The notes: generated from the sequence alone by a model not told the origin. DNA of 64,000 nt from an uncultured Candidatus Saccharibacteria bacterium (GCA_964612745.1 CAZTCH010000002.1:1009-65008), one strand, 5' to 3'. Shown: positions 16,226-57,704, counted from the stretch's first letter. Translations and numbers: made by a program.

Positions 16226-16247
16226 TTACGAAGGTGACCATGGTAAC
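16226..16247. repeat. Array repeat R7 ttacgaaggtgaccatggtaac (perfect)
   Basis: Sequence match. Confidence 0.8.
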
Positions 16248-16251
16248 AATA

Positions 16252-17049: not shown

Positions 17050-17074
17050 TCCGGTATCATACCATAAAATTAAC

Positions 17075-17506: not shown

Positions 17507-17517
17507 ATCCTATTTGG

Positions 17518-17539
17518 TTACGAAGGTCACCATGGTAAT
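17518..17539. repeat. Array repeat R9 ttacgaaggtcaccatggtaat
   Basis: Sequence match. Confidence 0.7.
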
Positions 17540-17563
17540 CAAAACTCAGAATGAAGCACTTAG

Positions 17564-18145
17564 CTAACCACTAGAAACAGCCTCGCCACTAACAATCTTT
17601 TCTAAAACCTTACGCGCTTTCTCTGAATGCCCCAAAGCAAGCTTACGAATTACTCCTAAATTTTCCGGATTGTTCATAGGAAGCGTACTTGTTGCAGAAA
17701 ATAAAAAATTTAAACTTGCTACCACCTCAGCAAGAGTTTTAACTATGTCCTCATTCTGAGTACTTAATGCCAATGGCGTACTTAAACCATTTAAAGCCTG
17801 TGAAATGTTTGAAATATGCTGGTTAAATCGGTGCGACGTGTCTTTGGTCACCCACCCCGGAGAGTATTCTTCCATTGTACTATATATTAACTTTGCATCA
17901 AGGTTACTCCCATCGTGCAAACTAATTTGCCCAAGATAGTCTTGCATGGCAACATTAATTAACGTCAAAAGACTAACGGCAAGATCGTGCACTTTTTCGT
18001 TCCTTAAGGTTTCAATATCAATCTTCTTTTGCTTCCTATATAACCAAACACCGGAGTATGCAATTATTAAACCAGCAAATAAAGTTCCCACAAATGTATT
18101 ATCTGCAGTCTGTGCTAGAGCATTAGAAAATGTATTTATATCCAT
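17564..18145 (-). CDS. Hypothetical protein with N-terminal TM helix
   Basis: ORF only. Confidence 0.35.
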   Translation of the reverse strand: MDINTFSNALAQTADNTFVGTLFAGLIIAYSGVWLYRKQKKIDIETLRNEKVHDLAVSLLTLINVAMQDYLGQISLHDGSNLDAKLIYSTMEEYSPGWVTKDTSHRFNQHISNISQALNGLSTPLALSTQNEDIVKTLAEVVASLNFLFSATSTLPMNNPENLGVIRKLALGHSEKARKVLEKIVSGEAVSSG

Positions 18146-18190
18146 AAGCGACTAATATACAATCAAGTAACAGTACCACTCACGTGCATC

Positions 18191-19126: not shown

Positions 19127-19202
19127 ACAGTAACCATACCAAAAAATCGCCAGCCAAGCGATTCTATACAAAAAAACTACCAAATCTCAGTAATTTGATT
19201 GG

Positions 19203-19224
19203 TTACGAAGGTGACCATCGTAAC
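19203..19224. repeat. Array repeat R11 ttacgaaggtgaccatcgtaac, 30 bp from the tRNA-Gln 3' end
   Basis: Sequence match. Confidence 0.75.
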
Positions 19225-19254: not shown

Positions 19255-19328
19255 TGGCTGGGGTACTAGGATTCGAACCTAGGATGACGGGACCAGAACC
19301 CGTTGCCTTACCGCTTGGCTATACCCCA
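19255..19328 (-). tRNA. tRNA-Gln (anticodon CUG), CCA encoded
   Basis: Minus-strand cloverleaf: UGGGGUA acceptor with U1-A72, GGUUCGAAUCC T-arm, UUCUGGU anticodon loop, G73-CCA. Close to the canonical bacterial tRNA-Gln. Confidence 0.85.
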
Positions 19329-21662: not shown

Positions 21663-21796
21663 AAGTAACTCAAAAGTCAAAGAGAACAATTTAACTCCCC
21701 TAACCCCTCTTTGGAAAAGAGGGGGAACAGATGGTGCCCATCTTCTGCTCAAAAATGACATACATTTACTAGAGTGATATACTAAATATGTAGATA

Positions 21797-22134: not shown

Positions 22135-22410
22135 AAGAACAGATGGGTGCCATCAAGAGAAACTCCAAATCCCAAGCACCAAATATCAAATAAATTACAA
22201 TCCGCCAGCTGGCGGACAAAATTCAAATCAAAACTGTAAACTGAAATGCAATTTAGTTATGAGTTTATAGTTGCAGTTTTGCGTTCCTGTCGTTAGATGG
22301 GCACCATCTGACACCATGCTCGTAGTTATGGTTTGAGGGCGCATCGACACAAATAAGTATAAAACTTACCTGTCAGATGGTGCCCATCTAACTCTACCGT
22401 TTTTCTTGCG
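22135..22410. mobile_element. MITE-like repeat copy A: AC-rich word arms plus long hairpin cagatgggcaccatctgaca...tgtcagatggtgcccatct
   Basis: Shares arm words (ccaaatcccaagcaccaaatatcaaataaatt; agttgcagttttgcgtt) with copies at 36.8, 38.1 and 48.0 kb. Confidence 0.5.
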
Positions 22411-22425
22411 TGAAGACCTTAAGAC

Positions 22426-23247
22426 ATGACGGCGTTCGACTCGTACTCGGTTGCTGTTGATAAATCCCGCTTGACTAACAGTTTTTTTCCTGTAATGGTA
22501 CAGGTAGTATTAACAAAAATGCATATGCAGCCAAACAGTCAAAAGAGTTCGGGAGGATTTTTTCAGGACAACAAGAACGCCCTTATTGTTGCCGCAATAG
22601 TCGTTATTATTATTGCTGTCTACTTTGTGACACGGGACACCGCCAAAGTAGGCGTGCAAGACCAAAAAGAGAACACAGAAACCAGCGAAAGCATGGAAGT
22701 TGACGGAGACAAGATGGCAGATGACGCCAAAATGGAAGGCTCGGACACAGCTAAGCAACCAAAGCCAGAAAGCGACACAACAAGCCAGACTGGTGACGCA
22801 GTTACCTTTACCGGTACCCTTATGGCCTCTACCAACCCAGCCAAAGGTAACTATGTCGTAGACAGCAATCGTGGCATGGTGTACATCCAAAGCAGCCGTG
22901 ACATGAGCGCGCTAGTAGGCAAAGCAGTAAAAGGCACTGCCACTGGTAGCATTACCAACTTTAGCAATGTCATGCTAACCCCAGCAGACGCCGCTCCAGA
23001 CGCCATGCAAGACAAAGGTGGTTCTGCAGAAATGCCAGACATGACCGCTAAGCCAGAAGTCACTTTTAGCGGTATCTTGCAAGAAAGTGCAGACAAGAGC
23101 AAAGGCGCATACAGCATTACCTCTGGTAAAACAGTGGTATATGTCATGACTAGCAAAAACCATGCAGATCACGTGGGCAAAGAAGTCACTTTGACCGCAC
23201 AAGGCACCTTACAAGCATTCCACCACGCAATGATCGCTGCAAAGTAA
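22426..23247 (+). CDS. Hypothetical membrane-anchored protein with internal tandem duplication; true start likely downstream near the MHMQPN methionines
   Basis: Two homologous ~50-aa units (FTGTLMAST... / FSGILQESA...). Confidence 0.4.
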   Translation: MTAFDSYSVAVDKSRLTNSFFPVMVQVVLTKMHMQPNSQKSSGGFFQDNKNALIVAAIVVIIIAVYFVTRDTAKVGVQDQKENTETSESMEVDGDKMADDAKMEGSDTAKQPKPESDTTSQTGDAVTFTGTLMASTNPAKGNYVVDSNRGMVYIQSSRDMSALVGKAVKGTATGSITNFSNVMLTPADAAPDAMQDKGGSAEMPDMTAKPEVTFSGILQESADKSKGAYSITSGKTVVYVMTSKNHADHVGKEVTLTAQGTLQAFHHAMIAAK

Positions 23248-25865: not shown

Positions 25866-25988
25866 AACTACAAAAATCAAAACTCAAACAAGTTCCAATA
25901 CACAATGTCCAAAATAAGAAAGTGTATTTGTTTGGGATTTTGAATATTGTAATTTATTTGTTATTTCGTGCTTGTGATTTGGAATTTC
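25866..25988. repeat. ~125-bp repeat, inverted copy of 55343-55468
   Basis: Reverse complement matches 55343-55468 with only a few mismatches by eye. Confidence 0.7.
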
Positions 25989-26028
25989 TTTTACTGACTC
26001 CTAACTCCTAATTCCTAATTCCTAGCTT

Positions 26029-32030: not shown

Positions 32031-32039
32031 AGGACATTA

Positions 32040-32200
32040 AAGCATACAAACATACAAACATCTAAACACAGGGAGAATTTTTAATTTTTAATTTTTAATT
32101 TTTTTAGAACTAAACTCTAAACTAATCAGTGTGTATCTGGAAAATTGAAAATTGTAAAATTAAAAATTGTCCGCCTGTTTACATGTTTACATGTTTAAAT
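32040..32200. repeat. Degenerate micro-tandem word repeats (catacaaa x2, tttttaat x3, aaaattg x3, gtttacat/gtttaaat x4) upstream of trmH-like gene
   Basis: Direct reading. Confidence 0.6.
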
Positions 32201-32202
32201 GT

Positions 32203-32736
32203 TTAAATGCCTTCCCGCTTCTTCATGTCTTTCCGCACCCAGAAGAGTATTGCGACAAGCGCGAGCCAGTTCAGGCCAAACACCCACGGGTTCGCCCACG
32301 AAAGTCCCCTACCAGCAAACGTAAAGTCGGACAAAGGAAATAAAAATGGAGTACTAAAGAAGTCAGGGTGCGTTGGGATATCCATGAGCACATGCACTCC
32401 CCATGCAACAAGTGGCCACCAGACTACAGACATCTTTTTGTATGCCCGTACTGCGCACACCACCGCAAATACTAGCAAAAACAACACAAAGCTGTGGGTG
32501 TAGTTATAGCTCTGTATGGCCCACGCAAACACCCAATGCTGGGGTACAGGGAAAAACAAACTCGCAGAAAAGCTTGTTTGGGTCAGTAAAAAATAGAGTT
32601 GTACTGGTAAAAACGGAATCACATCTGGCAGCATGCCCACGACCAAACCCCACAAAGCCTTTTTGGGCTTGCCTTCTTTTTGTGCTTTTGGGTAACTAAG
32701 GGCAAAGCCCCAGAGGCCATGAGAAAATACGTCCAT
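32203..32736 (-). CDS. DUF457 membrane-bound metal-dependent hydrolase (YdjM-like)
   Basis: MDVFSHGLWG start with His-containing TM helices. Confidence 0.45.
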   Translation of the reverse strand: MDVFSHGLWGFALSYPKAQKEGKPKKALWGLVVGMLPDVIPFLPVQLYFLLTQTSFSASLFFPVPQHWVFAWAIQSYNYTHSFVLFLLVFAVVCAVRAYKKMSVVWWPLVAWGVHVLMDIPTHPDFFSTPFLFPLSDFTFAGRGLSWANPWVFGLNWLALVAILFWVRKDMKKREGI

Positions 32737-32747: not shown

Positions 32748-32830
32748 GTCGTAACGTCTTAACGTCTTAACGTCTTAACGTCTTAACGCTCAAAGCCTAC
32801 TGTATAGACTTTGAATAACTACTAAGAACT
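32748..32830. repeat. Tandem cgtcttaa x4 (inverse of the TTAAGACG core of the GAAGAC/TTAAGAC motif family) plus actaag word repeats
   Basis: Direct reading. Confidence 0.6.
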
Positions 32831-36744: not shown

Positions 36745-37015
36745 AAATTCCAAATCTCAAGCACCAAATAACAAATAAATTCCAAAATCCAAAGTAAAAA
36801 TCAAAACTCAAAAGTCAAAACGCAAAACTGCAACTCAAAAATGTAACAACTTTTCTTCTACAGGAGCCCTTGATGGGCATCTTCTCACATAATTCTGTTG
36901 AAATATCTGCAGCGTACACAACGCTCGTGGTGCGTTACAAAGTTTTTGTGAGAAGATGCCCATCAAGACATGCTTTGCACTTTCTATTTCGGATTTGAAA
37001 ATTAGAAATTAAAAA
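36745..37015. mobile_element. MITE-like repeat copy B with 21-bp perfect inverted repeat cttgatgggcatcttctcaca (36869-36889 / 36948-36968) and AC-rich word arms
   Basis: Whole element is the reverse complement of the copy at 47915-48165, including the loop. Confidence 0.6.
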
Positions 37016-37111
37016 TTACCAAGAGCTCTGCTCTTGATAATGGTATACTATCGTCCACCTTTTGGCAAACAAAAAAACACGGGTGACCGTGTTTTGTGTA
37101 AGTACCTATTT

Positions 37112-37486
37112 TTACGCAGCAAGTTCTTTCCGGCGAGCGATGTGGCGCTTGTGGTGGAAAAAGATTATGACCGAAGCAAGCACAACGTACCCAACTGCCA
37201 TGTTCGGGTCCACCAAGACTTTGTACCCTACCAATAACCCTGTTATGAGCACATCACCCAAAAGCTCAAGCACAAGCCAGAGCACCAACACTATGAGTGC
37301 TTCAAGCACCGTAATAGCACCCAACTGGCGCACTGCAAACACAGCTGCTACCCCCACCACCACCCAGTACACTGCGTGAATCAAAAACGAAGTCTCCCAC
37401 GCAGCAAAAGAGTAAAACACCGATTTTGTAACAACCAAAAATGCTGCTAAACCCAACCCATACCCAAACAGTTTTACATAGGTCAT
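37112..37486 (-). CDS. Hypothetical membrane protein
   Basis: 4 TM helices. Confidence 0.35.
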   Translation of the reverse strand: MTYVKLFGYGLGLAAFLVVTKSVFYSFAAWETSFLIHAVYWVVVGVAAVFAVRQLGAITVLEALIVLVLWLVLELLGDVLITGLLVGYKVLVDPNMAVGYVVLASVIIFFHHKRHIARRKELAA

Positions 37487-37513
37487 ATCAGTAGTATTCT
37501 AGAAGCAGAAATC

Positions 37514-38056
37514 TTAGGCAGCTTTCTTTGCCAATGCACGTCGTGTCGGACGGACTGTCTTTGGGCTTGCCACATGTGCGCGTCGACGAATGGTCTTCGT
37601 ACTCGCTGCAGGTAAACTGCTGGACTGCATGTACTCAGTTTCCACTTCCCCACCACCTTGTCGCATTGCCACCACTTCGTCTGTGGTTACACCATGAGAT
37701 GTTTTTGTTCGGCGGAGAATAAAACTCGCCATGCTTTGTGTGGTTCTGTCTTCGTAAATTGCAGCGTACCAGATAAGTCCCAACCAAACACCGTACCATG
37801 CACCAAAAGAAACAGCGACAGCAGTGGTAATAACCCCCAAGGCTTGTGCATACAAACTAGAAATATCTGCACCAAGCAAAAATGCAGCAATAAAGGCAGC
37901 GCGTTGTACCATCAAAAACAACAGCACCCCTAAGACCATAGCAAGAAAAATGTAGAAAGATTTTCTTGTATTTTCGTTCATGACTTTTGTTTCACTATTA
38001 AAGTTGTAATTTGATTTTATTATACCACATTTTAAAAAACTTAACTCAAAATGCAA
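37514..38056 (-). CDS. Hypothetical membrane protein
   Basis: TM helices; start uncertain. Confidence 0.35.
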   Translation of the reverse strand: MHFELSFLKCGIIKSNYNFNSETKVMNENTRKSFYIFLAMVLGVLLFLMVQRAAFIAAFLLGADISSLYAQALGVITTAVAVSFGAWYGVWLGLIWYAAIYEDRTTQSMASFILRRTKTSHGVTTDEVVAMRQGGGEVETEYMQSSSLPAASTKTIRRRAHVASPKTVRPTRRALAKKAA

Positions 38057-38156
38057 AAGTCAAAAGTAAAAACTGCAACTAAAAACTGTAAACTGAGATA
38101 CTTTCTGTAGTTCACAATTTTTGAGTTGCAGTTTTGCGTTTTCAGTTTTGACTTTT
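38054..38156. mobile_element. MITE-like copy C: ~40-bp terminal inverted repeats (caaaagtcaaaagtaaaaactgcaactaaaaactg / tttttgagttgcagttttgcgttttcagttttgactttt) around a short core, lacking the central hairpin module
   Basis: Arms are mutual reverse complements and match the arms of copies B and D. Confidence 0.55.
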
Positions 38157-38159
38157 TAG

Positions 38160-38235
38160 TTTCCTTTTTTGACCTAAGCCTTATCCGTAGATATCCGTAG
38201 GTATCCGTAGATTCGTAGGTATCCGTATATCAGCG
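38160..38235. repeat. Micro-tandem repeat atccgtag(g/a)t x5 (degenerate)
   Basis: Direct reading. Confidence 0.6.
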
Positions 38236-39252
38236 TTATTTTATACTGAGTATGCTTCGTTTGTAACTGTCCAAATTATCGAGCGCTACACCAGTACCTT
38301 TTGCGACACACAAGAGCGGATCTTCTGCCACAAAACATGGCACGCCAATTGCTTCGGAAATATACCGATCAAGGTTGCGCAGTTGTGCGGTCCCACCAGT
38401 CATAACCATACCTTTGTCTATAATGTCTGCAACAAGTTCTGGTGGGGTGTCTTGCAAAACTGTTTTAATCGCACGTACTATCTCCTGTAAGTCTTCTGTA
38501 ATTGCTTCTACCACTTCGTTCGTAGACACCGTGAGCGTGCGTGGCAAACCCGTGACGCCATCACGCCCCTTGGTTTCCATGACTTCTTCTTCGGGTAATG
38601 CTTGCGCACTGCCAATAGTAATTTTGATTTCTTCTGCGGTTCTGTCGCCAATGGCAAGCCCATGGCGCTTACGCACAAAGTCTACAATGCTCTGGTCTAG
38701 CCGGTTCCCTGCGACACGTACCGAAGTGGAATTCACAATACCACCCAAAGACAACACTGCCACATCGGTAGTCCCGCCACCAATATCAATCACCAAATTT
38801 CCTGCAGCACTGCCAATTGGAATCCCCGCCCCTATTGCCGCAGCAACTGTTTCTTTAATAACAAACGCTTGGCGAGCCCCCGCAGCACGAGCCGCGTCCA
38901 ACACCGCACGACGTTCAGTCGAAGTCACACCCCCTGGCACACTAATCATAACTTCTGGCCGCACCAATCGGAACCCTGGCAACGCTTTGTTAATAAAATA
39001 ACGCAGCATTGCTTCAGTCACTCGATAGTCTGCAATCACCCCGTCTCGCATTGGCCTTCGGGCAACAATGGTTTCTGGTGTTCTACCCAACATGTCTTTT
39101 GCCTCTTGTCCCACAGCTAAGACACGGTTGTCGTCGAGCGTAATAGCTACAACGGTGGGCTCATTGATTACAATCCCTTGATGGGGCAAAAATACCAGCG
39201 TATTTGCTGTACCCAAGTCTATCCCAACTTTGTTTTGAAACCATTTAGACAT
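38236..39252 (-). CDS. mreB: Rod shape-determining protein MreB (ORF track extends upstream to 39321)
   Basis: IGIDLGTANT phosphate-1 motif and actin-fold body. Confidence 0.85.
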   Translation of the reverse strand: MSKWFQNKVGIDLGTANTLVFLPHQGIVINEPTVVAITLDDNRVLAVGQEAKDMLGRTPETIVARRPMRDGVIADYRVTEAMLRYFINKALPGFRLVRPEVMISVPGGVTSTERRAVLDAARAAGARQAFVIKETVAAAIGAGIPIGSAAGNLVIDIGGGTTDVAVLSLGGIVNSTSVRVAGNRLDQSIVDFVRKRHGLAIGDRTAEEIKITIGSAQALPEEEVMETKGRDGVTGLPRTLTVSTNEVVEAITEDLQEIVRAIKTVLQDTPPELVADIIDKGMVMTGGTAQLRNLDRYISEAIGVPCFVAEDPLLCVAKGTGVALDNLDSYKRSILSIK

Positions 39253-39423
39253 ATGCTTCTTCAAGTTACACCTGTAGGCAGAAAGAGCTGTTTTTGCAGT
39301 ACTTTTCAGAGCTTCCCACAAACCACACGACCTCTACATGCATCTAGTATACCAAACCCTACCAGTTTGTAGTAGAGCCCAAAAGTGACTATACTATATT
39401 GAGATTATATTTATTTTTTCCTC

Positions 39424-40719
39424 ATGAAAGTTCGATACCGCTACACACTTATCGCCCTTGGCATTGCCACCTTCCTTATTCTTGCCCCATCCCTATTACT
39501 CTATGTACAGGGCAAACGGTGGACGACAAAACCAACACAGTCTCCCAAAACAGGCATTATCTCTATCGAAACAGAGCCGAATAATGCCACTGTCTTTGTA
39601 AACTCCACAGAAGAGCTCACCACCCCTGGCGCAGTCCGGTTTCTTCCTACTGGCAGATACGACACCCGTATAACCAAAGAAGGTTACAAAACATGGGAAA
39701 AAACTTTGTCGGTTATTGCCGGACGCGTGACCCACGCCAACCCAAACCCAGCCAAGCTCGCACTGGTGAAAGACACGCAACCTCAAACAATCGCTACAAA
39801 CGTCACTCATGCAGCAAGTAGCGACGAGCACATTGCGTACACTACAACCGGAAAAAAACTGGTTATTACTGACCGCACCGGAAGCACTGCAGAGTCCACA
39901 ACCTTACCAGCAGAAGCAACAACGCTGCAAACAGGAGCACAAAAAAATCAGTTCATAGTGACTGGACCAGCGTATGCATGGGTGGTTGCGCCCAACACAG
40001 CACCAATACAACTCCCCGCAAACTTTTCGGAAGGAACCACCTTCCCTACTGTAGATGCAGTCGTACACCTTACCCCCACAGGCGACCTACTCTACACCAC
40101 CCTCGCACAACCAAACAATGTAAAAATCTTAGCTCGAAAAGTGAAAGGTTTTACGCTGCACAGTTCGGATGTCTACTACCTCGCCGCAAAAGAAACGCAA
40201 CAAGACAAACCACAACAACTCCTACTCATACATGGCACACTCAAAGAAGGAGCAGTTATTGGCATGCAGGAATTTAGCACAAACCTGAACGATACAGAGA
40301 GCAGCGTGTTTCTCGACGAAGGCAAAAGCGTGTACATACTCCAAGCAAACACATTGTACCGACTCGCGGAAAATGCAAAGCAAATCGCAACGGGAGTGAC
40401 CAGTGCCAGCACTACCTCTGGAAACCTGACCTACACGACCCCGAGCGAATTTTGGTCTTACTCCAGCACGAGTGACAGCTCGTCACTAATCTCTCGTTCC
40501 TCGCAGCCCTTTAGCACGTACTTGATTGCCCCAAACAAGCAGTACGTTCTCGCTGCACCAGACAAAGAGCTGGTAGCCTTAGAAATAAATGCGGAGTTTG
40601 GGCAAAACCGTTACACCTTGGATACCGCCACAGACAAACTATCCCCGATTGCATTTATGCAAAATACCCACGCTCTGTACCTCTCAGGGACGACTCTAAA
40701 ACTGATTGAGCTATTTTAA
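39424..40719 (+). CDS. PEGA domain-containing membrane-anchored protein
   Basis: N-terminal TM then PEGA-like IETEPNNATVFVN..G..P. Confidence 0.45.
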   Translation: MKVRYRYTLIALGIATFLILAPSLLLYVQGKRWTTKPTQSPKTGIISIETEPNNATVFVNSTEELTTPGAVRFLPTGRYDTRITKEGYKTWEKTLSVIAGRVTHANPNPAKLALVKDTQPQTIATNVTHAASSDEHIAYTTTGKKLVITDRTGSTAESTTLPAEATTLQTGAQKNQFIVTGPAYAWVVAPNTAPIQLPANFSEGTTFPTVDAVVHLTPTGDLLYTTLAQPNNVKILARKVKGFTLHSSDVYYLAAKETQQDKPQQLLLIHGTLKEGAVIGMQEFSTNLNDTESSVFLDEGKSVYILQANTLYRLAENAKQIATGVTSASTTSGNLTYTTPSEFWSYSSTSDSSSLISRSSQPFSTYLIAPNKQYVLAAPDKELVALEINAEFGQNRYTLDTATDKLSPIAFMQNTHALYLSGTTLKLIELF

Positions 40720-41135
40720 CGTTCCGCGTGTGCATCCAGCGCTTGGTTAACCATTCGGTCAGCGTCTTTGTTAAACTCGCGCCTCACGTGTTCAAACGTT
40801 ACTTCCGTAAAATTATTTTTTAGTTGGATTACTTTTGCAGCCAATACTTGTAGTGTTGGCTCTTTTATTTTGTACCGGCCCTGCATTTGTCGCACGATCA
40901 GTTCGCTATCCATGTACACGGCAACCGCTTGCGCACCAAGGTCTTTTGCTGTTTCCAGTGCTTTTACCAGTGCACTGTACTCCGCTACGTTGTTGGTAGC
41001 GATGCCAATGTATGACCCATGTTCAAAAATAACTTCAGAAGTTTCTGCGTTACGAATGACTACTCCAATTGCTGCGTGCCCTGGGTTACCCCGTGACCCA
41101 CCATCAGTATGTACTGTTACTTTTTGTATATGCAT
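40716..41135 (-). CDS. rnhA: Ribonuclease HI
   Basis: TDGGSRGNPG motif and DEDD-type RNase H residues. Confidence 0.8.
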   Translation of the reverse strand: MHIQKVTVHTDGGSRGNPGHAAIGVVIRNAETSEVIFEHGSYIGIATNNVAEYSALVKALETAKDLGAQAVAVYMDSELIVRQMQGRYKIKEPTLQVLAAKVIQLKNNFTEVTFEHVRREFNKDADRMVNQALDAHAER

Positions 41136-41140
41136 ATATT

Positions 41141-42874
41141 TTAGTGTACCTCAGTTTCTGCGAGGCGTATATCTATAACTCGACACTTCAACTTCCGCAC
41201 CCCATTCCACGCATCTGCCATCAACTCTACGACGACATCGCAGCGTGTCTCCAGTGGGAACATGTCGGCGATGTGCGCCATGCTAAATCCTATTCCCGCC
41301 AGTGGCACCCCACCCACGTCGAATACCACCTGCACGTGCGTAGACTCTTTACCCACTTTACGCGCTTGCTGCAACACCGCTCCGCGCAGCAAAAACACCG
41401 GCTTCGGGTTACCAGCTCCAAATGGTGCCAAACGCTCGAGCTGGTCAAAACAATCCAGTGTGAGATCTTCTACTCCCAGTACTGCGTCAACATCTATCCC
41501 TTTTTCGGATTCGAACCCTGCTGCAGTTTCGGCATAGCGAGCGATAGCAATACGAAATGCTTCTAAGTTTTCTGGTAAGAGACTCAAACCAGCTGCTTCT
41601 TTGTGGCCGCCATATTTTACTAAATACTCACTCGTCGCTTGTAGCGCAGCCACCACGTCAAATTCACCCCACGTGCGCGCCGAACCAGTGCACATATCTG
41701 TAGCTGCTTCTAGTACAATGACTGGCTTCATGAACTCGGTTGCCAAGCGGCCCGCAGCTATCCCCACAATCCCTTTAGGCCAATCTGTCCCTGCGAGCAC
41801 CAATACTTTGCGTTCACCTTGCAGCTGTGCTTGCTCTCTTGCTTCAGAAATAAGCCGACTGGTAAGCTCTTGCCTTCGTGTATTCACTTTGTCCAGCACC
41901 AGCGCTGCTTGCCCTGCCACTACAGGGTCACGAGCAAGGAGTGTGTCTAGCGCGATGTTTGCGTGCTCCAGTCGCCCTGCTGCGTTAATCCGCGGTGCAA
42001 GCAAAAACCCCAACGTGTACGTCGTGAGTTCGCTTGCTGCATCCTTAACCGCCAGCCCGAGGATGGCACGCAACCCTGCCCATTTAGTACGCGCCAGCAC
42101 TTTTAAGCCATACTTCACAAAAATACGATTTTCGCCAAGGAGACTATGACAATCTGCCACTGTTCCTATCGCTACCAAATCGAGCAGCCACTTATCCCAA
42201 TTGGCTACGTATTGCTCTTCGGAAATCCCTTTCAGTTTTACGACCTTCGCTTTTTCGTCTAAGAGCGCCTTCGCCAGTTTGTACGCCACACCCACACCAG
42301 TAATCTGATGGTCAGGATACTGCTCGGTTGGATTTTTTGGATTAATCAAAGCGTACGGTGTCGGCACTTCCCCCGTAATTTCGTGGTGGTCGGTAATAAT
42401 CAAATCGATTCCCTGCTTTTTACACCACTCCGCGACGTCCACCGAGTTAGTCCCACAGTCTACCGTTATAACCACTTGCGCACCATCTGCTTGGATTTTT
42501 TCGAATGCTTCAATGTTCAAGCCGTACCCTTCGGTAAAACGGTCAGGAATATAGCTCCCAATATCTACCCCCAAATACCGAAAGGTTTGGGTCAACACAG
42601 CGTTAGCCGTTACGGCATCTGCGTCGTAGTCACTGTAAATGACTATGCGCTCGCCTGATTCTATAGCTTTCCAAATTCTATCCACCGCCACGCGCATAGA
42701 CAAAAATGCGTAGGGGTCGTACTGGTCAGCGTAATCAATCTCCAAAAAGTGTTTAGTTTCACTTGCCGTCACCCCTCGCTGCCACAACAGCGTGGCAACC
42801 AGTGGAGTCACAGCCTCATATTCTGCCAAAACCGCCGCTGCAGGTATTTCTTTTTGCTTCCAAATCTTTGCCAT
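41141..42874 (-). CDS. recJ: Single-stranded-DNA-specific exonuclease RecJ
   Basis: DHH motifs (YSDYDADAV; ITDHH) plus DHHA1 region. Confidence 0.8.
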   Translation of the reverse strand: MAKIWKQKEIPAAAVLAEYEAVTPLVATLLWQRGVTASETKHFLEIDYADQYDPYAFLSMRVAVDRIWKAIESGERIVIYSDYDADAVTANAVLTQTFRYLGVDIGSYIPDRFTEGYGLNIEAFEKIQADGAQVVITVDCGTNSVDVAEWCKKQGIDLIITDHHEITGEVPTPYALINPKNPTEQYPDHQITGVGVAYKLAKALLDEKAKVVKLKGISEEQYVANWDKWLLDLVAIGTVADCHSLLGENRIFVKYGLKVLARTKWAGLRAILGLAVKDAASELTTYTLGFLLAPRINAAGRLEHANIALDTLLARDPVVAGQAALVLDKVNTRRQELTSRLISEAREQAQLQGERKVLVLAGTDWPKGIVGIAAGRLATEFMKPVIVLEAATDMCTGSARTWGEFDVVAALQATSEYLVKYGGHKEAAGLSLLPENLEAFRIAIARYAETAAGFESEKGIDVDAVLGVEDLTLDCFDQLERLAPFGAGNPKPVFLLRGAVLQQARKVGKESTHVQVVFDVGGVPLAGIGFSMAHIADMFPLETRCDVVVELMADAWNGVRKLKCRVIDIRLAETEVH

Positions 42875-43245
42875 ACGAGTAGTCTACCACACTTTAATAA
42901 AGCATTTAGAATAAGCCATATTTATACAACTTAATTGACATAATATGTATTATATGCTATAATATTTTTAATAATTTAACAATATCGTTAAATTTATTCC
43001 CAAAAGGAGCGATGCGATGCAATTGGAACATGACTTCACCTACGTTAGAACAGACGATGGACAACATCTTTTATCCCGCAAGTGCAGCACCTGCGGACTC
43101 GAGCAACAAGCAAACCAAGACACTTTCCCACAACCGGATGTGGAGTGTAATGGTTAATAAAAGGTTCCAACAGCAACAACAAAGAAGAGGCTATTCTCAT
43201 AGTCTCTTCTTTCATTTCCACGCATTATGGACATAACTCACGATT

Positions 43246-44847
43246 CTAAGTCAACGCTCGGAGCAGGCTCACCGCGGTCATTTCAGGCGGTTTTTCTAAG
43301 CCCATAAGGGCAAGCACGGTCGGTGCCACGTCACTTACTACTCCATCTGGAACTACGGTAGCCAATGAAGCATAATCTGGGCGCTCTTCTCTTATACGCC
43401 GCAAATCTTCTGCCACTAAAATAAATGGAATAGGATTGGTAGTGTGGTCTTTATCTATTTGCCCTGTTTTTACATTGACCATTTGCTCTATGTTGCCGTG
43501 GTCTGCAGTAATAATAAGGGCCCAGTCGTTCGCCAAAGCAGCTTCTGCCAGTTTCCCCATAGCGTCATCTATCGCCGCGACTGCTTGTATCCCCGCTTCC
43601 AAATTTCCGGTATGCCCCACCATGTCGGCGTTCGCATAGTTGGCCAAAATAAAATTCAGCTGTGGGTCTGCAAATTTTTCGAGCAGTACTTCGGTGAGAG
43701 CGGGTGCTGCCATTTGTGGCTGGTCAGAATAGTTGTTGCTATTGGAAGGACTGCGCACAATTTGCCTATCCTCCCCTGGGAGTGGGTCCGTGACGCCGCA
43801 ATTAAAGAACGCGGTCACGTGGGCGTATTTCTCACTTTCGGCTGCGTGAAATTGCTTTAATCCTTTTGCAGATAAATATTCTGCTAAGTTACCGTCGAGT
43901 ATTGGTGCAGAGTACGCCACGTGCACAGGCAGCCCTTGGCGATACTCCGTCATGGTGGCAAAATAAATGTTTTGCAACACCCGAATCTGCGAAGCCAACG
44001 GTGTGCGTACAGTTTCTACAAATGCTTGCGTGAGCTGCAGTGCTCGATCTTGGCGGAAATTAAAAAAGATAATTGCATCGCCATCGGCAATTTTGCCCAC
44101 CGCATGACCTTGCTCATCTACCAACACACTCGGTGGGATCATTTCGTCGTACACACCACTCGCATACTGGCCTTGGACACAGCTCTCTGCCCCTGCTGCT
44201 TCCACCCCCACACCTTCGACTAATGCGCGGTACGTCTGTTCGATTTGGTTCCAGTGTCCACCCCGATCCATTGCATAAAACCTACCCGTAATAGTCGCAA
44301 TCTTACCCACTCCAATCTCTGCAATTTTTTGCTCGAGCCTAGCTATATCTTGCAATGCTACTCGTTCTGGTGTGTCTCTGCCATCCAAAAAGATATGCAC
44401 AAACACACGGGAGATCCCCCGCATTTCCGCCAAAGCCAAAAGAGCAAATAGATGGTCAATAGACCCGTGCACGCCACCTGAGCTCGTTATGCCCATCAGG
44501 TGTAAAGCCGAGTTGTTAGCCCGAGCGTGCTCACACGCCCCCACGAGCGCTGGATTGCTATAGAAGCTGTCGTCCTGAATAGCAGCATTTATACGGGGTA
44601 AATCTTGCGCCACAATACGCCCTGCACCCATGTTTAAATGCCCCACTTCGGAGTTGCCCATCTCACCCCATGGCAAACCAACGAGAGGTCCAGATGCTTG
44701 CAAAGTCGTAGAAGGAAACTGCCCTACGAGATTATCGATGTGTGGCGTACCTGCTAACGATATGGCATTGCCCCGCGAAGGACTTGCCACGCCAAAGCCA
44801 TCCAACACAACGAGCGCTACTTTTGTATATTGTTTTGGTGTTACCAT
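43246..44847 (-). CDS. gpmI: 2,3-bisphosphoglycerate-independent phosphoglycerate mutase
   Basis: VALVVLDGFG start, SEVGHLNMGAGR, TADHGN motifs. Confidence 0.85.
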   Translation of the reverse strand: MVTPKQYTKVALVVLDGFGVASPSRGNAISLAGTPHIDNLVGQFPSTTLQASGPLVGLPWGEMGNSEVGHLNMGAGRIVAQDLPRINAAIQDDSFYSNPALVGACEHARANNSALHLMGITSSGGVHGSIDHLFALLALAEMRGISRVFVHIFLDGRDTPERVALQDIARLEQKIAEIGVGKIATITGRFYAMDRGGHWNQIEQTYRALVEGVGVEAAGAESCVQGQYASGVYDEMIPPSVLVDEQGHAVGKIADGDAIIFFNFRQDRALQLTQAFVETVRTPLASQIRVLQNIYFATMTEYRQGLPVHVAYSAPILDGNLAEYLSAKGLKQFHAAESEKYAHVTAFFNCGVTDPLPGEDRQIVRSPSNSNNYSDQPQMAAPALTEVLLEKFADPQLNFILANYANADMVGHTGNLEAGIQAVAAIDDAMGKLAEAALANDWALIITADHGNIEQMVNVKTGQIDKDHTTNPIPFILVAEDLRRIREERPDYASLATVVPDGVVSDVAPTVLALMGLEKPPEMTAVSLLRALT

Positions 44848-44855
44848 AAAAAACG

Positions 44856-46100
44856 TTATTCAAGCGCGCGAATACCGGGAAGTTCTTTACCCGCTAGATA
44901 TTCCAACAAAGCTCCACCACCTGTCGACACATGATCTACATAACTTGCTTGCCCTGCCTGCCTGACCGCGTCCACTGTTTCACCACCACCCACCACTGCA
45001 AAGGCTCTACCAGTTCCGACTCCACCAACCACACGGGCCAGCGCCATCGTCGCATGATGAAACGGAGGATGCTCAAAAAATCCAAGCGGCCCGTTCCAAA
45101 TAACTGTTTTTGCTTGCTTGAGCACTTTCGCAAAGGCTAATATAGTTTTTGGTCCTGCGTCTAAAATAAGCTCACTCTTTTTTACTTCGTGAGGTGCACA
45201 CGTTCGAATAGAAGACTTTTCTAACTTAGCGTTCGCAACCACAACATCTACCGGCAACACTAATTTGCCTTTAAAGTTTTTATCCATTTGCCATGCAAGC
45301 TTCACCGCTTCACTTTCAGCTTTCGATTTCCCTATCTCATATCCCCGTGCCGCAAAAAACAAGTTTGCCAACCCACCACCAACTAAAATAGTATCGGCAC
45401 GCTGCCCAAGGTTTTGTAATGTTTTAGCTTTATCAGAAATTTTTGCCCCGCCCATCATGACTACAAATGGGCTCTTTGGGCGATGCAATAACTTTTGCAA
45501 CCCTTTAATCTCTTGCTCCAGCAACAACCCAGCAAACGAAGCAGCTGCATATTTCGGAATACCAGTAATGGAAGCTGCACGCCGATGATCAACCGCAAAC
45601 GCTTCGTTCACGTAGGCCTCACCAAGACTCGCCAACATCCGTGCGAACTTAGTGTCATTCGCTTCTTCTTCTGGATAGAACCGAATATTTTCAAGCAAAA
45701 CCAAACTCCCCAAAGGAAGTGCAGTAAGTGTTTCTCGTTCTGCTTCTTGTGTTATATCTCCGGTAAAAAAGAATAACTTCTTCAGCGCTTGTTCACCTGA
45801 TATGCTCTTTCCTTCTTGTAGTGGCACCGAAAGCAACTCTGCCAGCTTCTTCGCGACAGGCAACAGAGAATACTTTTTTACCCACGCACCATCTGGACGA
45901 CCTAAGTGACCACACAAAATAACTGTGCAACCCCTCTCTCGCAAGTAGGCAATGGTTGGCAAGATTGCACGAATCCGAAAATCGTCAGACACCTGCCCTG
46001 CGTCAGACAATGGCGTATTGATGTCGACACGCATGACTACTGTCTTGTTTTTGATTTTGCTAGACCTGAGATATGTTATTGCCATAATATAAGATACCAA
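44856..46100 (-). CDS. pgk: Phosphoglycerate kinase
   Basis: RVDINTPL N-terminus and GGGA hinge motifs. Confidence 0.85.
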   Translation of the reverse strand: MVSYIMAITYLRSSKIKNKTVVMRVDINTPLSDAGQVSDDFRIRAILPTIAYLRERGCTVILCGHLGRPDGAWVKKYSLLPVAKKLAELLSVPLQEGKSISGEQALKKLFFFTGDITQEAERETLTALPLGSLVLLENIRFYPEEEANDTKFARMLASLGEAYVNEAFAVDHRRAASITGIPKYAAASFAGLLLEQEIKGLQKLLHRPKSPFVVMMGGAKISDKAKTLQNLGQRADTILVGGGLANLFFAARGYEIGKSKAESEAVKLAWQMDKNFKGKLVLPVDVVVANAKLEKSSIRTCAPHEVKKSELILDAGPKTILAFAKVLKQAKTVIWNGPLGFFEHPPFHHATMALARVVGGVGTGRAFAVVGGGETVDAVRQAGQASYVDHVSTGGGALLEYLAGKELPGIRALE

Positions 46101-46123
46101 TATACTAATAAATACGAATATAA

Positions 46124-46546
46124 CTAATACGTACCAATGGGATTTCGAAAGTTATCAATCCGAACAACCCGTGTTGGTTTAATATACTTATTTCTAAAAT
46201 TAACAAGAAGCGCCAACTTCAGCTGAGTCTCCTGCAAGTACCTTTGCGTTTGCTCATAGTCACTCTTCGTAAGCATTCGCTTACTTTTCATCTCAATCAC
46301 AATTTTGTTATCGATAACAAAATCTACTCTATTTCCACTTTCCCCTACTCGCAGTTCGCGTGCATATGCAAGCTTGGCGCTTCTTAAGCATTCTTCAAAC
46401 AGGTCACCATATTGCTTCTCGCGCGCATACGCCCCTAATTCGTTATGCACTTTAAACAACAACCCAGTCACTACATACGATAATTCACCGTACAAGAGCT
46501 TTGAAGATTGCATGGTAGTAGTACCTATTCGTATCATTAGTACCAA
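46124..46546 (-). CDS. GxxExxY protein (PD-(D/E)XK fold family), inserted between pgk and gap
   Basis: LLYGELSYVVTG (G-x-x-E-x-x-Y) and D..IEMK motif. Confidence 0.6.
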   Translation of the reverse strand: MVLMIRIGTTTMQSSKLLYGELSYVVTGLLFKVHNELGAYAREKQYGDLFEECLRSAKLAYARELRVGESGNRVDFVIDNKIVIEMKSKRMLTKSDYEQTQRYLQETQLKLALLVNFRNKYIKPTRVVRIDNFRNPIGTY

Positions 46547-46563
46547 TTCGTTGATTGGTATCT

Positions 46564-47595
46564 TTATTTGCTTCCGACATGAATCACTTGTTCAACTAAT
46601 CGATTGCTATAGCCAAACTCATTGTCGTACCACGCAATCACTTTTACAAAGTTTCCATCGACTACTTGTGTCAGTGCTAAATCCACAATACACGAAGCTG
46701 CGTTTCCAACTATGTCAGATGAAACAATAGGTTCATTCGTTACTTCCAAAATACCTTTAAACCGAGGAGAAGCTGCGGCTGCAGATAGCACCTGATTGAT
46801 TTCTTCTTTGCTGGTGCGCTTACCGAGTAACAAGGTAAAGTCAGACAAACTTCCGACTGGTGTTGGCACACGAATAGCTAACCCGTCGAATTTTCCTTTC
46901 AAATCTGGCAATGCTTGTGTTGCAGAAATTGCAGCACCGGTCGTAGTCGGAATAATATTCACCGCTGCAGCACGAGCACGGCGCAAATCGCCACTCTTTC
47001 CCCCTGGTGGCAAACCATCTATTAAGTTCTGCTCTGCAGTGTAACTATGAATAGTGGTCATGAAAGCTTTTTCGATACCAAAGGCATCATGTAGCACACT
47101 CATGACTGGAGTAATACAGTTAGTAGTGCAAGAAGCATTACTTATAATTGGTTGACCAGTATATTCTGCGTCATTTACGCCAAGTACGATGGTTGGAGTC
47201 ACCCCTTCGTCTTTTGCTGGTGCAGAAATAACGACATGCCGCGCCCCTGCGGTAATGTGTGCTCCAGCTTTTTCGCTGTCGGTAAACCGACCAGTGCATT
47301 CAATAACCACATCTACTGCCATTGCCTTCCAAGGCAAATTCACTGGCTCTTTCTCGCCGAGGATTGGATATTCTTTTCCATCTACACTGATTGCGCTTTC
47401 CGTATGGGTTACGGTGCGATGGTATGGGCCGTAGTTGGAATCGTACTTAAGCAAATGAGCCAATACTTCAGGGCTGGTAAAGTCATTAATCGCCACAATC
47501 TCCAGTTCTGGCTTTTCCAGCGCCAACTTAAACGCTTGACGACCGATGCGTCCAAAACCATTTATACCTACACGAATCTTCTTCTGTTCTGACAT
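46564..47595 (-). CDS. gap: Type I glyceraldehyde-3-phosphate dehydrogenase
   Basis: INGFGRIGR NAD motif and ASCTTNC active site. Confidence 0.9.
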   Translation of the reverse strand: MSEQKKIRVGINGFGRIGRQAFKLALEKPELEIVAINDFTSPEVLAHLLKYDSNYGPYHRTVTHTESAISVDGKEYPILGEKEPVNLPWKAMAVDVVIECTGRFTDSEKAGAHITAGARHVVISAPAKDEGVTPTIVLGVNDAEYTGQPIISNASCTTNCITPVMSVLHDAFGIEKAFMTTIHSYTAEQNLIDGLPPGGKSGDLRRARAAAVNIIPTTTGAAISATQALPDLKGKFDGLAIRVPTPVGSLSDFTLLLGKRTSKEEINQVLSAAAASPRFKGILEVTNEPIVSSDIVGNAASCIVDLALTQVVDGNFVKVIAWYDNEFGYSNRLVEQVIHVGSK

Positions 47596-47611
47596 ACTTG
47601 TTCTGTGTTAC

Positions 47612-47836
47612 TTAATTTTCTAGTAAATAGCTCGGTACTTTGAGCTTCCCCGTTGTTGCCTGCTTGACCTTCTTATCATGCTGCGGCAACTCGACATAAT
47701 CAGTGGAAACAAACAAAGCCCCTCGCCAATACAATACCGTACCCAGCGCAAAGAGCGCAACTGTGAAAAATGCATACATGCGAAATCGGACATTGATGTC
47801 CCGAACCGACGAGCCCGCCATACCTGAGCTAAACAT
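47612..47836 (-). CDS. Small hypothetical membrane protein
   Basis: 74 aa, one TM. Confidence 0.25.
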   Translation of the reverse strand: MFSSGMAGSSVRDINVRFRMYAFFTVALFALGTVLYWRGALFVSTDYVELPQHDKKVKQATTGKLKVPSYLLEN

Positions 47837-47914
47837 AGTGGTTGTTAGTTAATAAATGTTAAAAGAAATAGGCAAATAACTTATAGTTATCTCACTCTCT
47901 AGAGATGAGAATAA

Positions 47915-48165
47915 CTGAGAAGTCAAAATTCAAAAGTCAAAACTACAACTATAAACTGAAAACTATGTACGGAGCGTGTCCTGATGGGCATCTTCTCACA
48001 AAATCTTTGTAGCGCACTGCGGGCACTGTTTATACTACAGATATTTTAATAGAAGTATGTGAGAAGATGCCCATCAAGGGCTCGTGCATAAGAAAAGTTT
48101 TTAAATTTTTGAGTTGCAGTTTTGCGTTTTGATTTTTGAGTTTCTAGTTTTGTGGTTTTCCCACC
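47915..48165. mobile_element. MITE-like repeat copy D with perfect inverted repeat gatgggcatcttctcaca (47983-48000 / 48058-48075) and ~57-nt loop
   Basis: Arms and loop are the reverse complement of copy B. Confidence 0.6.
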
Positions 48166-55188: not shown

Positions 55189-55300
55189 AAAATGAGGACA
55201 GAGGTTAGAGAATAGAGGGTAGAGAGTAGAAAGAATGCAGAGGGCTAAGGGCTAAGGGCTAAGAAAAAATACAATTTCTAATTTTCAATTTTTAATTTTT

Positions 55301-55514
55301 CTTTCTCGTTACTCGCAACTAGTTACTCGTTACTACTTTTGGGAAATTCCAAATCACAAGCACGAAATATCAAATAAATTACAATATCCAAAATCCCAAA
55401 CGAATACACTTTCTTATTTTGGACATTGATGCATTGGAACTTGTTTGTTATTTGATTTTTGTCATTTGTGTTTTTTATCTTTCTCGCAACTCGCAACTAG
55501 TTACTCGTCACTAT
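55301..55514. repeat. ~142-bp segment (55337-55478; inverted copy of 25866-25988) bracketed by 36-bp imperfect direct repeats ctttctcg..actcgcaactagttactcgt.act at 55301-55336 and 55479-55514
   Basis: Direct reading of both direct repeats and of the inverted homolog. Confidence 0.65.
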
Positions 55515-57208: not shown

Positions 57209-57314
57209 AAAAATCTGTGCTTTTCAAAATTTGTTTTATCCCGCCTTCGCTAAAGCTTCGGCGGGTTCTGTTTTTCGAATCCTCTCCCTAATTCTTCTGT
57301 TTCTTCTAACTCTT

Positions 57315-57704
57315 CTATTTCTTCTTCCCCGCCTCCCTATTCAAATAATTCTGCAACACAATCTGTGCTGCTAAGCTATCGGTGCGGTCGTGCCCTGTAG
57401 GCACTTGTTCAGCCATAACAGAAGAGAGCCTTTCATCCATAAGTATAACAGGTACGCTCACTACCCGCTCAAGCGCTACTTTAAAATTTTCCACTTCTTC
57501 AGTCTTTTTTGTTTTTTGTCCGCTCATACCAAGTGGAAAACCCAAGACAATACTCTCCAGCTCCAGCTCAGTAAGCAGTTTTGGAAGCTCATGCCAAAAC
57601 TGTGTAGGAGAATACACAGCTAATTCCCGCGCCAGCATGTGTAGCTCGTCTGAAACTGCAATCCCAATCCGTTTTGTGCCAAAATCAATACCTAAAATTC
57701 GCAT
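57315..57704 (-). CDS. ruvX: Putative pre-16S rRNA nuclease / Holliday junction resolvase-like
   Basis: MRILGIDFGTKRIGIAVSD start (RNase H-like YqgF family). Confidence 0.75.
   Translation of the reverse strand: MRILGIDFGTKRIGIAVSDELHMLARELAVYSPTQFWHELPKLLTELELESIVLGFPLGMSGQKTKKTEEVENFKVALERVVSVPVILMDERLSSVMAEQVPTGHDRTDSLAAQIVLQNYLNREAGKKK

Follow-up and report, generated by a model that had tools for sequence, protein, structure and literature searches.

Spaced hairpin doublets in the intergenic regions of an uncultured Saccharibacteria bacterium, with a tentative REPIN-like interpretation

A family of intergenic hairpins was identified in a 64,000-nucleotide stretch of DNA from an uncultured Candidatus Saccharibacteria bacterium (GCA_964612745.1 CAZTCH010000002.1:1009-65008), referred to here as the window, with positions counted from its first letter. 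The hairpins occur in both orientations and consist of two complementary arms of about 22 bp held at a nearly constant distance. They are tentatively interpreted as REPIN-like, that is, as doublets of a repetitive extragenic palindromic (REP) sequence mobilised by a Y1 transposase. Genomes of the candidate phyla radiation (CPR, Patescibacteria) are regarded as streamlined and poor in repeats, whereas the intergenic regions described here are mosaics of repeat modules with a fast turnover.

Anatomy and hosts of the hairpins

The window contains three hairpins of about 100 bp, four solo arm-like sites, and one heptamer palindrome that consists of arms only. The hairpins are as follows.

36869-36967: hairpin copy 1, V1 type; CTTGATGGGCATCTTCTCACA at 36869-36889 and its exact complement at 36947-36967, around a 57-nt spacer (36890-36946)
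47980-48078: hairpin copy 2, V1 type; arms 47980-48000 (one mismatch at the outer end) and 48058-48078; 57-nt spacer
22292-22392: hairpin copy 3, G type; left arm 22292-22313 (GTTAGATGGGCACCATCTGACA), right arm 22371-22392 (its exact complement), with a spacer of 57 nt

The 21-mer CTTGATGGGCATCTTCTCACA was matched four times in the window, at 36869-36889 (plus strand), 36947-36967 (minus), 47980-48000 (plus, with one mismatch in the outermost base pair), and 48058-48078 (minus), compared with 0.00 matches expected from 100 shuffles. Copies 1 and 2 are mutual reverse complements, spacer and one flank included, over 179 nt at 86%, and a second minus-strand alignment of the two covers 167 nt at 87%. 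The arms of copy 3 differ from the V1 arms at five positions, each of which is mirrored in the opposite arm. When the window was scored for an 18-nt core, all six paired arms had 0 mismatches, three solo sites had 3 mismatches each, and no intermediates were seen, the sample being small; solo sites of the window are either truncated or degenerate. No transposase or recombinase was found in the window by a Pfam scan of 30 open reading frames (ORFs) and inspection of most other ORF translations, the region of about 24-31 kb excepted.

These results bear out much of an earlier note, made from the sequence of the window, which had described an intergenic hairpin family in both orientations, two copies with a 21-bp perfect inverted repeat and a loop of about 57 nt that are reverse complements of each other, loop included, and no transposase in the window. 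The related hairpin it had reported in 22135-22410 is copy 3, the arms-only copy it had placed near 38054-38156 is a real palindrome at 38034-38170, and the short derivatives it had seen on either side of a dehydrogenase gene were recovered at 4009-4030 and 5234-5255.

For comparison, 23 hairpin copies were collected from four related genomes and a few metagenome contigs (loci are designated by L numbers). A scan of GTDB with one genome per species, using a pattern in which both arms were obligatory and three stem positions unrestricted, returned 15 loci in three metagenome-assembled genomes (MAGs) only, namely CAZZBG01 and CAZCTL01 (both labelled Saccharibacteria) and JAHFJI01 (labelled Doudnabacteria). 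A looser pattern applied to JGI metagenomes added five further members and four GC-rich chance hits, three of which were non-complementary at the free positions. Because the collection scans required perfect arm cores, the sample is biased towards intact copies; a mismatch-tolerant (Hamming) search was limited to the window and the fetched loci. Look-ups of window proteins for population variants returned a single 1.1-kb contig identical to the window. On the GC-rich metagenome contig k87-97661 (L018), an inverted repeat at 919-1018 pairs perfectly over more than 30 bp and has the same GATGGGCATCTTCTCG core, with a 64-nt spacer; it was excluded from the family on composition and context, without further proof.

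CAZZBG01 (GCA_964652865.1) is syntenic with the window at 90-95% DNA identity. The proteins of CAZCTL01 are 56-78% identical to those of the window, and JAHFJI01 and CAZCTL01 have proteins in common at 60-89% identity, so that the hairpin hosts make up one fairly narrow CPR lineage whose phylum-level labels are in conflict. The Doudnabacteria-labelled loci L003, L008, and L013 (JAHFJI01) share an orthologous hairpin locus with the Saccharibacteria-labelled loci L006 and L007 (CAZCTL01), and at least one of the two labels must be wrong. Many hairpins lie at contig ends and MAG contigs frequently end at hairpin repeats, which in practice break MAG assemblies.

Across the 23 copies the stems are perfect over 19-23 bp in 22, the remaining copy (L023) having 16 bp. 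Pairing between the arms is 83-100% from position -3 to +17 and 9-26% just beyond. Seven positions covary (-3, -1, 8, 10, 14, 15, and 16), each with two or three Watson-Crick pair types, and at the positions left free by the search 207 of 230 cells are paired, compared with 133 +/- 6 after shuffling; none of 5000 shuffles reached the observed value. The stem base GATGGGCA / TGCCCATC is invariant, an invariance imposed by the search pattern. Spacers measure 55-62 nt in all copies (mostly 57-58) and the total core 92-94 nt in 21 of the 23. No excess of folding was found in the spacers (most |z| < 1, with two outliers), their position-specific signal is at most 0.46 bit, and they can be aligned within subfamilies only, at 65-91% identity between copies with identical arms; the spacer of copy 3, for instance, is homologous to those of L010, L012, L014, L015, and L016. 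What stays constant is that the arms pair with each other, that the base of the stem has a specific sequence, and that the arms keep their distance; the information in the spacer is its length alone. The covariation is unusually clean for a doublet whose spacer is constrained in length yet free in sequence.

Arms begin with GTTAG, CTTG, or CCTAG. By inspection of the sequence, the A-type arm GTTAGATGG-GCA-CCATCTAAC is a 9+3+9 palindrome by itself and the G-type arm is nearly so. Relatives with a short loop were also noted at L029:13136-13171, L023:60-105, and L004:5823-5861, with arms such as CAATGGGCACCATTGCGC or GATGGGCATCTTCTCGA; the first reads CAATGGGCACCATTGCGC-AGC-GCGCAATGGTGCCCATTG. 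Their gap of about 3 nt shows that the hairpin family also occurs as tight doublets.

Gain, loss, and candidate enzymes

The positions of hairpins differ among closely related genomes. L016 has a complete hairpin where the equivalent site of the window (about 5800) has none, and L012 has the arrangement D-hairpin-B-A (modules described below) where the window (about 49100) has only a short, different spacer, the neighbouring genes being about 95% identical in both cases. In L007 the element is missing between GAPDH-ORF74 and aldolase, which is the site of copy 2 in the window, and a hairpin fills the gap between PGK and enolase. In L014 and L015, two paralogous loci of one genome, the hairpins match each other in the same orientation (91% over 101 nt) and the common flank matches on the opposite strand (88%), with the same junction TAAC|GGYG. 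The spacer is thus inverted with respect to the DNA around it. Either the arms recombined with each other, or a symmetric unit was inserted either way round at one exact point. No direct repeat of 3 nt or more was found at the stem ends.

The earlier note had proposed a non-autonomous mobile family, to be doubted if copies sat at identical positions in all relatives and had no target-site duplications, and had recommended a search for target-site duplications and empty sites. Mobility is favoured by the positional differences among 90-95%-identical genomes, and empty sites do exist in relatives. The copies have no target-site duplication. At least one of them stands at an orthologous site in two fairly distant genomes, and recent selfish DNA is therefore not the whole nature of the family. 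The filled and empty sites of close relatives, together with singlets of the form a-core-a^c, are consistent with excision or insertion.

If the hairpins are REPIN-like, each would be an inverted doublet of a REP-like site of about 22 bp (core TT(A)GATGGGCAYCWTCTNACA), with about 75 bp from start to start, and would constitute a non-autonomous unit that an enzyme acting in trans occasionally duplicates, excises, and possibly inverts, all at low frequency. Such an enzyme would recognise hairpins and leave no target duplication, the likeliest candidate being an HUH/Y1 transposase (IS200-like or a REP-associated tyrosine transposase, RAYT) as encoded in the lineage. Between events, copies would stay in place and be inherited vertically, and the solo a-core-a^c sites and the D1 sites described below would serve as breakpoints for gene gain, loss, and rearrangement. 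Movement through a hairpin intermediate, carried out by a Y1 enzyme, is what we infer; the lack of a target-site duplication is as expected for HUH/Y1 transposition. In this the hairpins resemble IS200/IS605 ends and RAYT 'REPtrons', where Y1 chemistry directed at hairpins would leave no duplication on insertion and could remove the DNA that two direct sites enclose.

The likeness to REPINs and REP dimers extends to several features. An inverted pair of short repeats is held at a preferred spacing (about 75 bp here), as in the REPINs of Pseudomonas, where the GI spacing is 71 bp, with 71 and 110 bp in strain SBW25 (Bertels & Rainey 2011, PMC3116915). The ends pair into a long hairpin, the spacer is conserved less than the repeats or in length alone, and REP dimers whose spacers are similar in length and different in sequence are documented, as are dimers nested in longer palindromes (PMC3733652), such as Anabaena GTAG-15. 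Doublets are better conserved than singlets, and palindromic a-core-a^c singlets occur, which in REPINs were attributed to excision (PMC3337134). Variation from strain to strain without target-site duplication, and RAYT-type Y1 transposases in the lineage, complete the list.

Candidate enzymes were found outside the window. In L002, from the closest relative, a V1 hairpin has a gene for a XerC/D-like recombinase (L002:5935-6924) beginning 250 bp away; the product scores 228 bits as XerC/D and 133 bits with the integron-integrase model, whose cut-off is 265. Farther on, at 1.3 kb from this hairpin, is the gene of a 199-aa Y1_Tnp protein that is RAYT-like.

L002:6980-7579 (= L026:7938-8537): RAYT-like gene, with homologues in L028, L029, and L033

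The protein scores 41 bits in Pfam (gathering score 23) and 39 bits for NCBIfam REP_Tyr_transpos (cut-off 80), and it carries the HUH motif NHFHL and the tyrosine motif YIHNNP. Its family is widespread in CPR bacteria, as a rule with a single contig for each protein cluster, and JGI gives the name RayT to several of its members. The gene and its homologues (86%, 73%, and 70% identical) lie in four distinct neighbourhoods, each with AAAAGGGTNACCCTTTT doublets on both sides; the gene and the palindromes (AAAGGGTNACCCTTT) at its two ends make up a compact unit of some 700 bp. In L033 a palindrome of this type is also found 2.8 kb from the gene. By this arrangement the AAAAGGGTNACCCTTTT palindrome is the RAYT's own REP, and the RAYT-end palindromes (AAAGGGTNACCCTTT) and the hairpin arms are separate families. 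A role of the RAYT as flanking partner of the hairpins was accordingly rejected, its flanks being a different palindrome. IS200/IS605-type mobilisation, as suggested in the earlier note, is made reasonable by the Y1_Tnp gene so near the L002 hairpin, which also answers that note's call for a transposase search elsewhere. The RAYT is nevertheless no more than a candidate for the mobilising enzyme, because it is flanked by the other palindrome in all four contexts examined. There are weaker links between RAYT and hairpins: a GG(G)-TNA/GCA-(C)CC centre is common to all three families of palindromes, and the RAYT of L029 lies near the same tRNA-Gln in a region syntenic with the D1 array of the window. 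RAYTs whose flanking repeats are unlike the dispersed ones are on record, and so are superfamilies of REPs that have no transposase of their own (PMC3733652).

Several observations weigh against a REPIN-like nature. The RAYT genes are flanked by AAAAGGGTNACCCTTTT instead of GATGGGCA arms, which breaks the linkage by which REPINs are tied to RAYTs, and one of the RAYT loci, L029, has no GATGGGCA site in 20 kb. No GTAG/CGTC tag abuts the stems. On these two grounds, REPIN-like is used here as a statement of mechanism and not of family membership. Classical REPs are palindromes, whereas V1-type arms, including both copies in the 36745-48165 range, are non-palindromic singly. Copy number is modest, at 3 in 64 kb and, in the MAG sampled best, 10 perfect copies. 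The stem pairs perfectly up to a sharp boundary, the spacer taking no part, and CPR/Patescibacteria are absent from the phyla for which REP superfamilies are given in PMC3733652. Finally, paralogous spacers differ by 9-35% while their arms remain perfect, and at the orthologous locus of L006 and L013, upstream of a gene for a type IV secretion system (T4SS) pilin-like protein (about 60% protein identity), identity is 100% over the arms with 3-4 adjacent nt and about 79% over the spacer, and no alignment of the left flank is possible. Such arms amid diverged flanks mean that copies can persist for long under strong constraint on the arms, and taken with the drift of paralogous spacers they point to selection on the arms in place, which is compatible with a host function too.

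A structural element used by the host is therefore the first alternative, judged unlikely as a full account. The stem of about 22 bp could be an RNase III site, a 5' or intercistronic stabiliser, or a pair of DNA sites for a binding protein, with selection in place keeping the arms and the spacer merely setting the geometry. At L006 and L013 the hairpin, with its fully conserved arms, ends 12-17 nt ahead of the start codon. As read from ORF coordinates, several copies (L003, L005, L007, L011, and window position 22296) either precede a start codon by about 12-35 nt or fill a gap between co-transcribed genes. Stem length is sharply restricted to about two helical turns, and REPs are known as RNA elements (PMC3733652). 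Use in either orientation is no objection, because the arms are symmetric and the stem forms from either transcribed strand. A host role accounts poorly, however, for presence and absence beside otherwise conserved genes in 90-95%-identical genomes, for copies in divergent, tandem, and 3' contexts among unrelated housekeeping neighbours (Pth, AspRS, NusA, ClpP, enolase, NusB, HU, RsgA, MGMT, and GroEL adjoin hairpins in the loci), for the lack of an Rfam match or a conserved spacer fold, and for a variable gene bracketed by solo sites. This alternative and the recombination-site alternative considered below are compatible with REPIN-like hairpins and do not exclude them.

Should the REPIN-like interpretation hold, the lineage would offer a compact test system (a typical CPR genome of about 1 Mb, a few dozen copies, and an apparently single-copy RAYT) for REPIN-RAYT co-evolution and for RAYT action on repeats that do not flank the RAYT.

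Single sites and the D1 array

Sites with the architecture of a single arm include two around a dehydrogenase gene and an array ending at a tRNA gene.

4008-4030, minus strand: solo site GTCTTGATGGGCATCTTCTAGAC, of the form a-core-a^c, downstream of the GSDH gene
4051-5217, minus strand: glucose/sorbosone dehydrogenase (GSDH, PF07995) gene, bracketed by two solo sites
5233-5255, minus strand: solo site GTCTCGATGGGCATCTTCTAGAT, upstream of the GSDH gene
21725-21748, minus strand: solo site GCAGAAGATGGGCACCATCTGTTC
22141-22160, plus strand: solo arm CAGATGGGTGCCATCAAGAG, degenerate, bordering the mosaic with hairpin copy 3
8925-19224, minus strand: D1 array of 11 sites (GTTAC-CATGGTCACCTTC-GTAACC; D1 = GTTACCATGGTCACCTTCGTAACC), all in one orientation, starting at 8925, 11742, 12461, 13379, 14045, 15615, 16224, 17083, 17516, 18199, and 19201
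19255-19328, minus strand: tRNA-Gln(CTG), where the D1 array ends

Solo sites have the structure GTCT-TGATGGGCATCTTCT-AGAC, i.e. a-core-a^c. The two that flank the GSDH gene, as the 22-mers TCTAGAAGATGCCCATC[A/G]AGAC at 4009-4030 and 5234-5255, are direct repeats around a 1.2-kb segment, and L016, from a relative about 90% identical, has a single site and lacks the GSDH gene. D1 sites, which begin with GGTTAC, lie at or beside gaps between the minus-strand genes of the 8.9-19.2 kb region. They grade into the hairpin arm through GTTACGATGGTCACCTTCGTAACC at 19201 and GTTACGATGGCCATCTTCGCAACC in L016, and elsewhere (L002, L004, and L029) they form tandem pairs and abutting inverted doublets. If the hairpins are REPIN-like, solo and D1 sites would be single-site relatives or remnants.

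When the window was compared with L016, the core genes flanking the array were about 95% identical in protein, and only three array genes were held in common (84%, 57%, and 83% protein identity), in a changed order. Breakpoints of homology fell at a D1 edge in all four cases aligned. In one of them (L016:5238-5300 versus window 16998-17049), murI of L016 is reduced to its first 60 nt or so beside a D1 pair and murI of the window is full, a difference that is a deletion or replacement with its endpoint at D1. With every examined breakpoint at a D1 edge and the GSDH gene bracketed, D1 and solo sites are therefore rearrangement hotspots, for which site-specific chemistry and short-repeat recombination fit equally. 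Single-site relatives at breakpoints and around a strain-specific gene suggest a role in shaping the gene content of these symbionts.

A second alternative starts from these sites. The sites of about 23 bp (arms, solo, and D1) would be recombination or strand-transfer sites that bound single-gene cassettes, integron-like without an integron integrase and driven by a Xer-like tyrosine recombinase or a Y1 enzyme, and the hairpins would be inverted site pairs with an invertible spacer. We consider this distinctly unlikely as the whole explanation. It accords with the bracketed GSDH gene and the single empty site of L016, with eleven co-oriented D1 sites next to tRNA-Gln, with array genes that are 57-84% identical and reordered against a flanking core at about 95%, with the breakpoints, and with the flipped spacer of L014 and L015. 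D1 can also be read, by inspection, as 8-7-8 and the arm as 7-7-7, like the core site of a tyrosine recombinase, and both the XerC/D-like gene beside the L002 hairpin and the RAYT near tRNA-Gln in L029 would be suitably placed. Against it, no integrase was found in the window and the L002 recombinase scores as an ordinary XerC/D, and the hairpins are scattered among housekeeping genes and not arrayed. One breakpoint lies within murI and not between genes, where ordinary short-repeat recombination explains the data equally well; the GSDH pattern could likewise result from deletion between 22-nt direct repeats. The order of the attC core motifs is moreover reversed, and extrahelical bases are lacking.

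In an integron attC site, R'' (RYYYAAC) stands 5' and R' (GTTRRRY) 3', and the imperfect stem carries extrahelical bases. The likeness here lies in a hairpin-forming site with a variable centre, an arm (GTTAGAT/ATCTAAC) that fits GTTRRRY/RYYYAAC, a gene between two direct sites against one site in a relative, and a co-oriented array between short genes. The order, however, is 5' GTTAGAT ... ATCTAAC 3' and the stems are perfect, and identity with attC was rejected on these grounds. IntI was not found in the material analysed here, hairpins are dispersed among housekeeping genes, and D1 measures only about 24 bp. A more specific form of the idea is very doubtful: solo GATGGGCA and D1 sites would be working strand-transfer or recombination sites from which a single-gene cassette with one site is excised and re-inserted at another site, on an integron-like, integrase-less platform beside tRNA-Gln in the genome of an ultra-small CPR bacterium. 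In that form a domesticated Y1 enzyme (the RAYT) would perhaps act on single-stranded DNA, and the 57-bp hairpin spacer could be flipped.

D1 sites also affect gene calls. ORFs 17075-17506 and 18191-19183 read through D1 at their 3' ends and acquire C-terminal tails such as RYHGHLRNQ, and the murI ORF 16252-17100 likewise acquires a false N-terminus, MVTFVTK; the spurious tails are a risk for automatic annotation. A terminator-like hairpin AAAAGGTCACC...GGTGACCTTTT (3966-4001; L016 about 754-790) contains the AAGGTSACC core of D1 and resembles the RAYT-flanking palindrome; a GGTNACC motif is common to all of them.

The mosaic of modules and remaining alternatives

The earlier note had treated a unit of about 270 bp, with AC-rich arms around the hairpin, as one MITE (miniature inverted-repeat transposable element). 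The arms are tandem heptamer repeats (TCAAAAC/CAAAACG) arranged as inverted repeats, and they belong to modules that are independent of the hairpin.

38034-38170: module B palindrome (TCAAAAG/CAGTTTT) without a hairpin; arms 38034-38085 and 38119-38170, 52 nt, 77% complementary, 33 nt apart
47913-48150: module B arms 47913-47961 and 48104-48150, nested around hairpin copy 2
36745-36846, plus strand: next to hairpin copy 1, module A at 36745-36793 (AAATTCCAAATCTCAAGCACCAAATAACAAATAAATT) followed by the left module B arm at 36796-36842
22160-22208, 25903-25995, and 55343-55428: further copies of module A
22160-22451, plus strand: composite A-B-hairpin-D, matched in the opposite orientation by L012:424-695 and L015:1266-1470 at about 75% identity

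Because the hairpin exists without AC-rich arms and module B without a hairpin, the unit is a mosaic and not one element, and this part of the note did not hold. Copy 3 lies 7 nt from module B and copy 2 within it, and hairpins associated with module B occur in both orientations. Modules A (AAATTCCAAATCTCAAGCACCAAATA...), B (the heptamer palindrome), D (GGCGTGAAGACNTTAAGAC...), E (AGGAATT heptamers), and F (CCTTCGGCCGTGAGCTCAGGGTCGA) are common to the window and CAZZBG01, where their order and orientation vary; the hairpins of CAZCTL01, JAHFJI01, and the metagenome contigs come without any of them. Bacterial interspersed mosaic elements (BIMEs) of E. coli are mosaics of intergenic repeats with gyrase and IHF as binding proteins. 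Like these and the mosaics of Neisseria, the intergenic regions here are built of independent modules (A, B, hairpin, D, E, and F) whose combination, order, and orientation vary across loci and close relatives; unlike BIMEs, the modules are AT-rich tandem repeats of heptamers, octamers, and nonamers plus a spaced doublet. Anabaena REP dimers inserted in longer AT-rich palindromes and mosaic regions in Neisseria have been described (Di Nocera et al. 2013, PMC3733652).

The hairpin alone might still be a classical MITE of about 100 bp, its arms being terminal inverted repeats (TIRs) bound by the DDE transposase of an insertion sequence elsewhere, as for Correia or Nezha elements; we hold this improbable enough to rank last among the alternatives weighed. 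Correia/NEMIS elements measure about 100-150 bp, with TIRs of about 20-26 bp, a conserved interior, and a TA duplication, and are located in 5' untranslated regions or between cistrons as possible RNase III substrates. The hairpins agree in size, TIR length (21-23 bp), 5' or intercistronic location, and a host with no known transposase, and they occur in either orientation at strain-variable positions; Correia-type elements of similar size are among the MITEs reviewed in PMC3184786. TA flanks the core in 12-13 of the 23 copies. That TA is palindromic, however, forms part of the stem in one class, and is missing in the CTT...AAG class, so that there is no consistent duplication. Arm changes compensated at seven positions are not predicted by binding of a transposase to TIRs, the interior is free and not conserved between subfamilies, and no insertion sequence with these ends was found in about 250 kb from five related genomes (the window plus about 190 kb of loci).

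Further candidates were rejected more simply. A link to the cyanobacterial STRR/SDR/Nezha repeats, prompted by the heptamers, fails as HIP1 is absent and all related loci are in CPR MAGs. Derivation of the spacer from target DNA, or spacer-like acquisition, is contradicted by homologous spacers at different loci within a subfamily. A coding mini-gene was dismissed since the ATG of the arm leads to MGTI-stop (A and G types) or an unrelated run-on ORF (V1) and spacer lengths are not multiples of three. Neither a hidden promoter (a -35-like TCTGACA with a -10 in the spacer; no position-specific signal, consensus scan at background) nor an intrinsic terminator (no T-run, a loop far too long, copies between divergent genes too) was supported. 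As to a known RNA family, tRNA-Gln was the sole match in the window above the gathering threshold of Rfam 15, and at E <= 1 the hairpins matched merely sub-threshold eukaryotic miRNA-precursor models, that is, generic hairpins. A phage origin was rejected, the pattern search of viral contigs having given no matches.

Other repeats were noted in the window. A perfect 40-nt palindrome, AAAAGCCAACACTTTTCACGGCCGTGAAAAGTGTTGGCTTTT, is present in five copies (8862-8920, 13436-13494, 13534-13592, 14914-14972, and 15012-15070), often beside D1 sites and with compensated variants such as CCACTAGTTTTCACGGCCGTGAAAACTAGTGG; it resembles a bidirectional terminator and forms a repeat family of its own. Intergenic tandem repeats include the 8-mer GTCTTAAC (5 units), the 10-mer TATCCGTAGA (4.8 units), the 9-mer TAGAAGAAT (4 units, with an inverted copy 51 kb away), an AT-rich palindrome of 74 nt, and the heptamers AGGGCTA and CTCGTTA; together they occupy 32748-32788, 38182-38227, 5765-5803 / 57288-57325, 32035-32209, and 55194-55335. 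Such an abundance of short intergenic tandem repeats is unusual for a small CPR genome.

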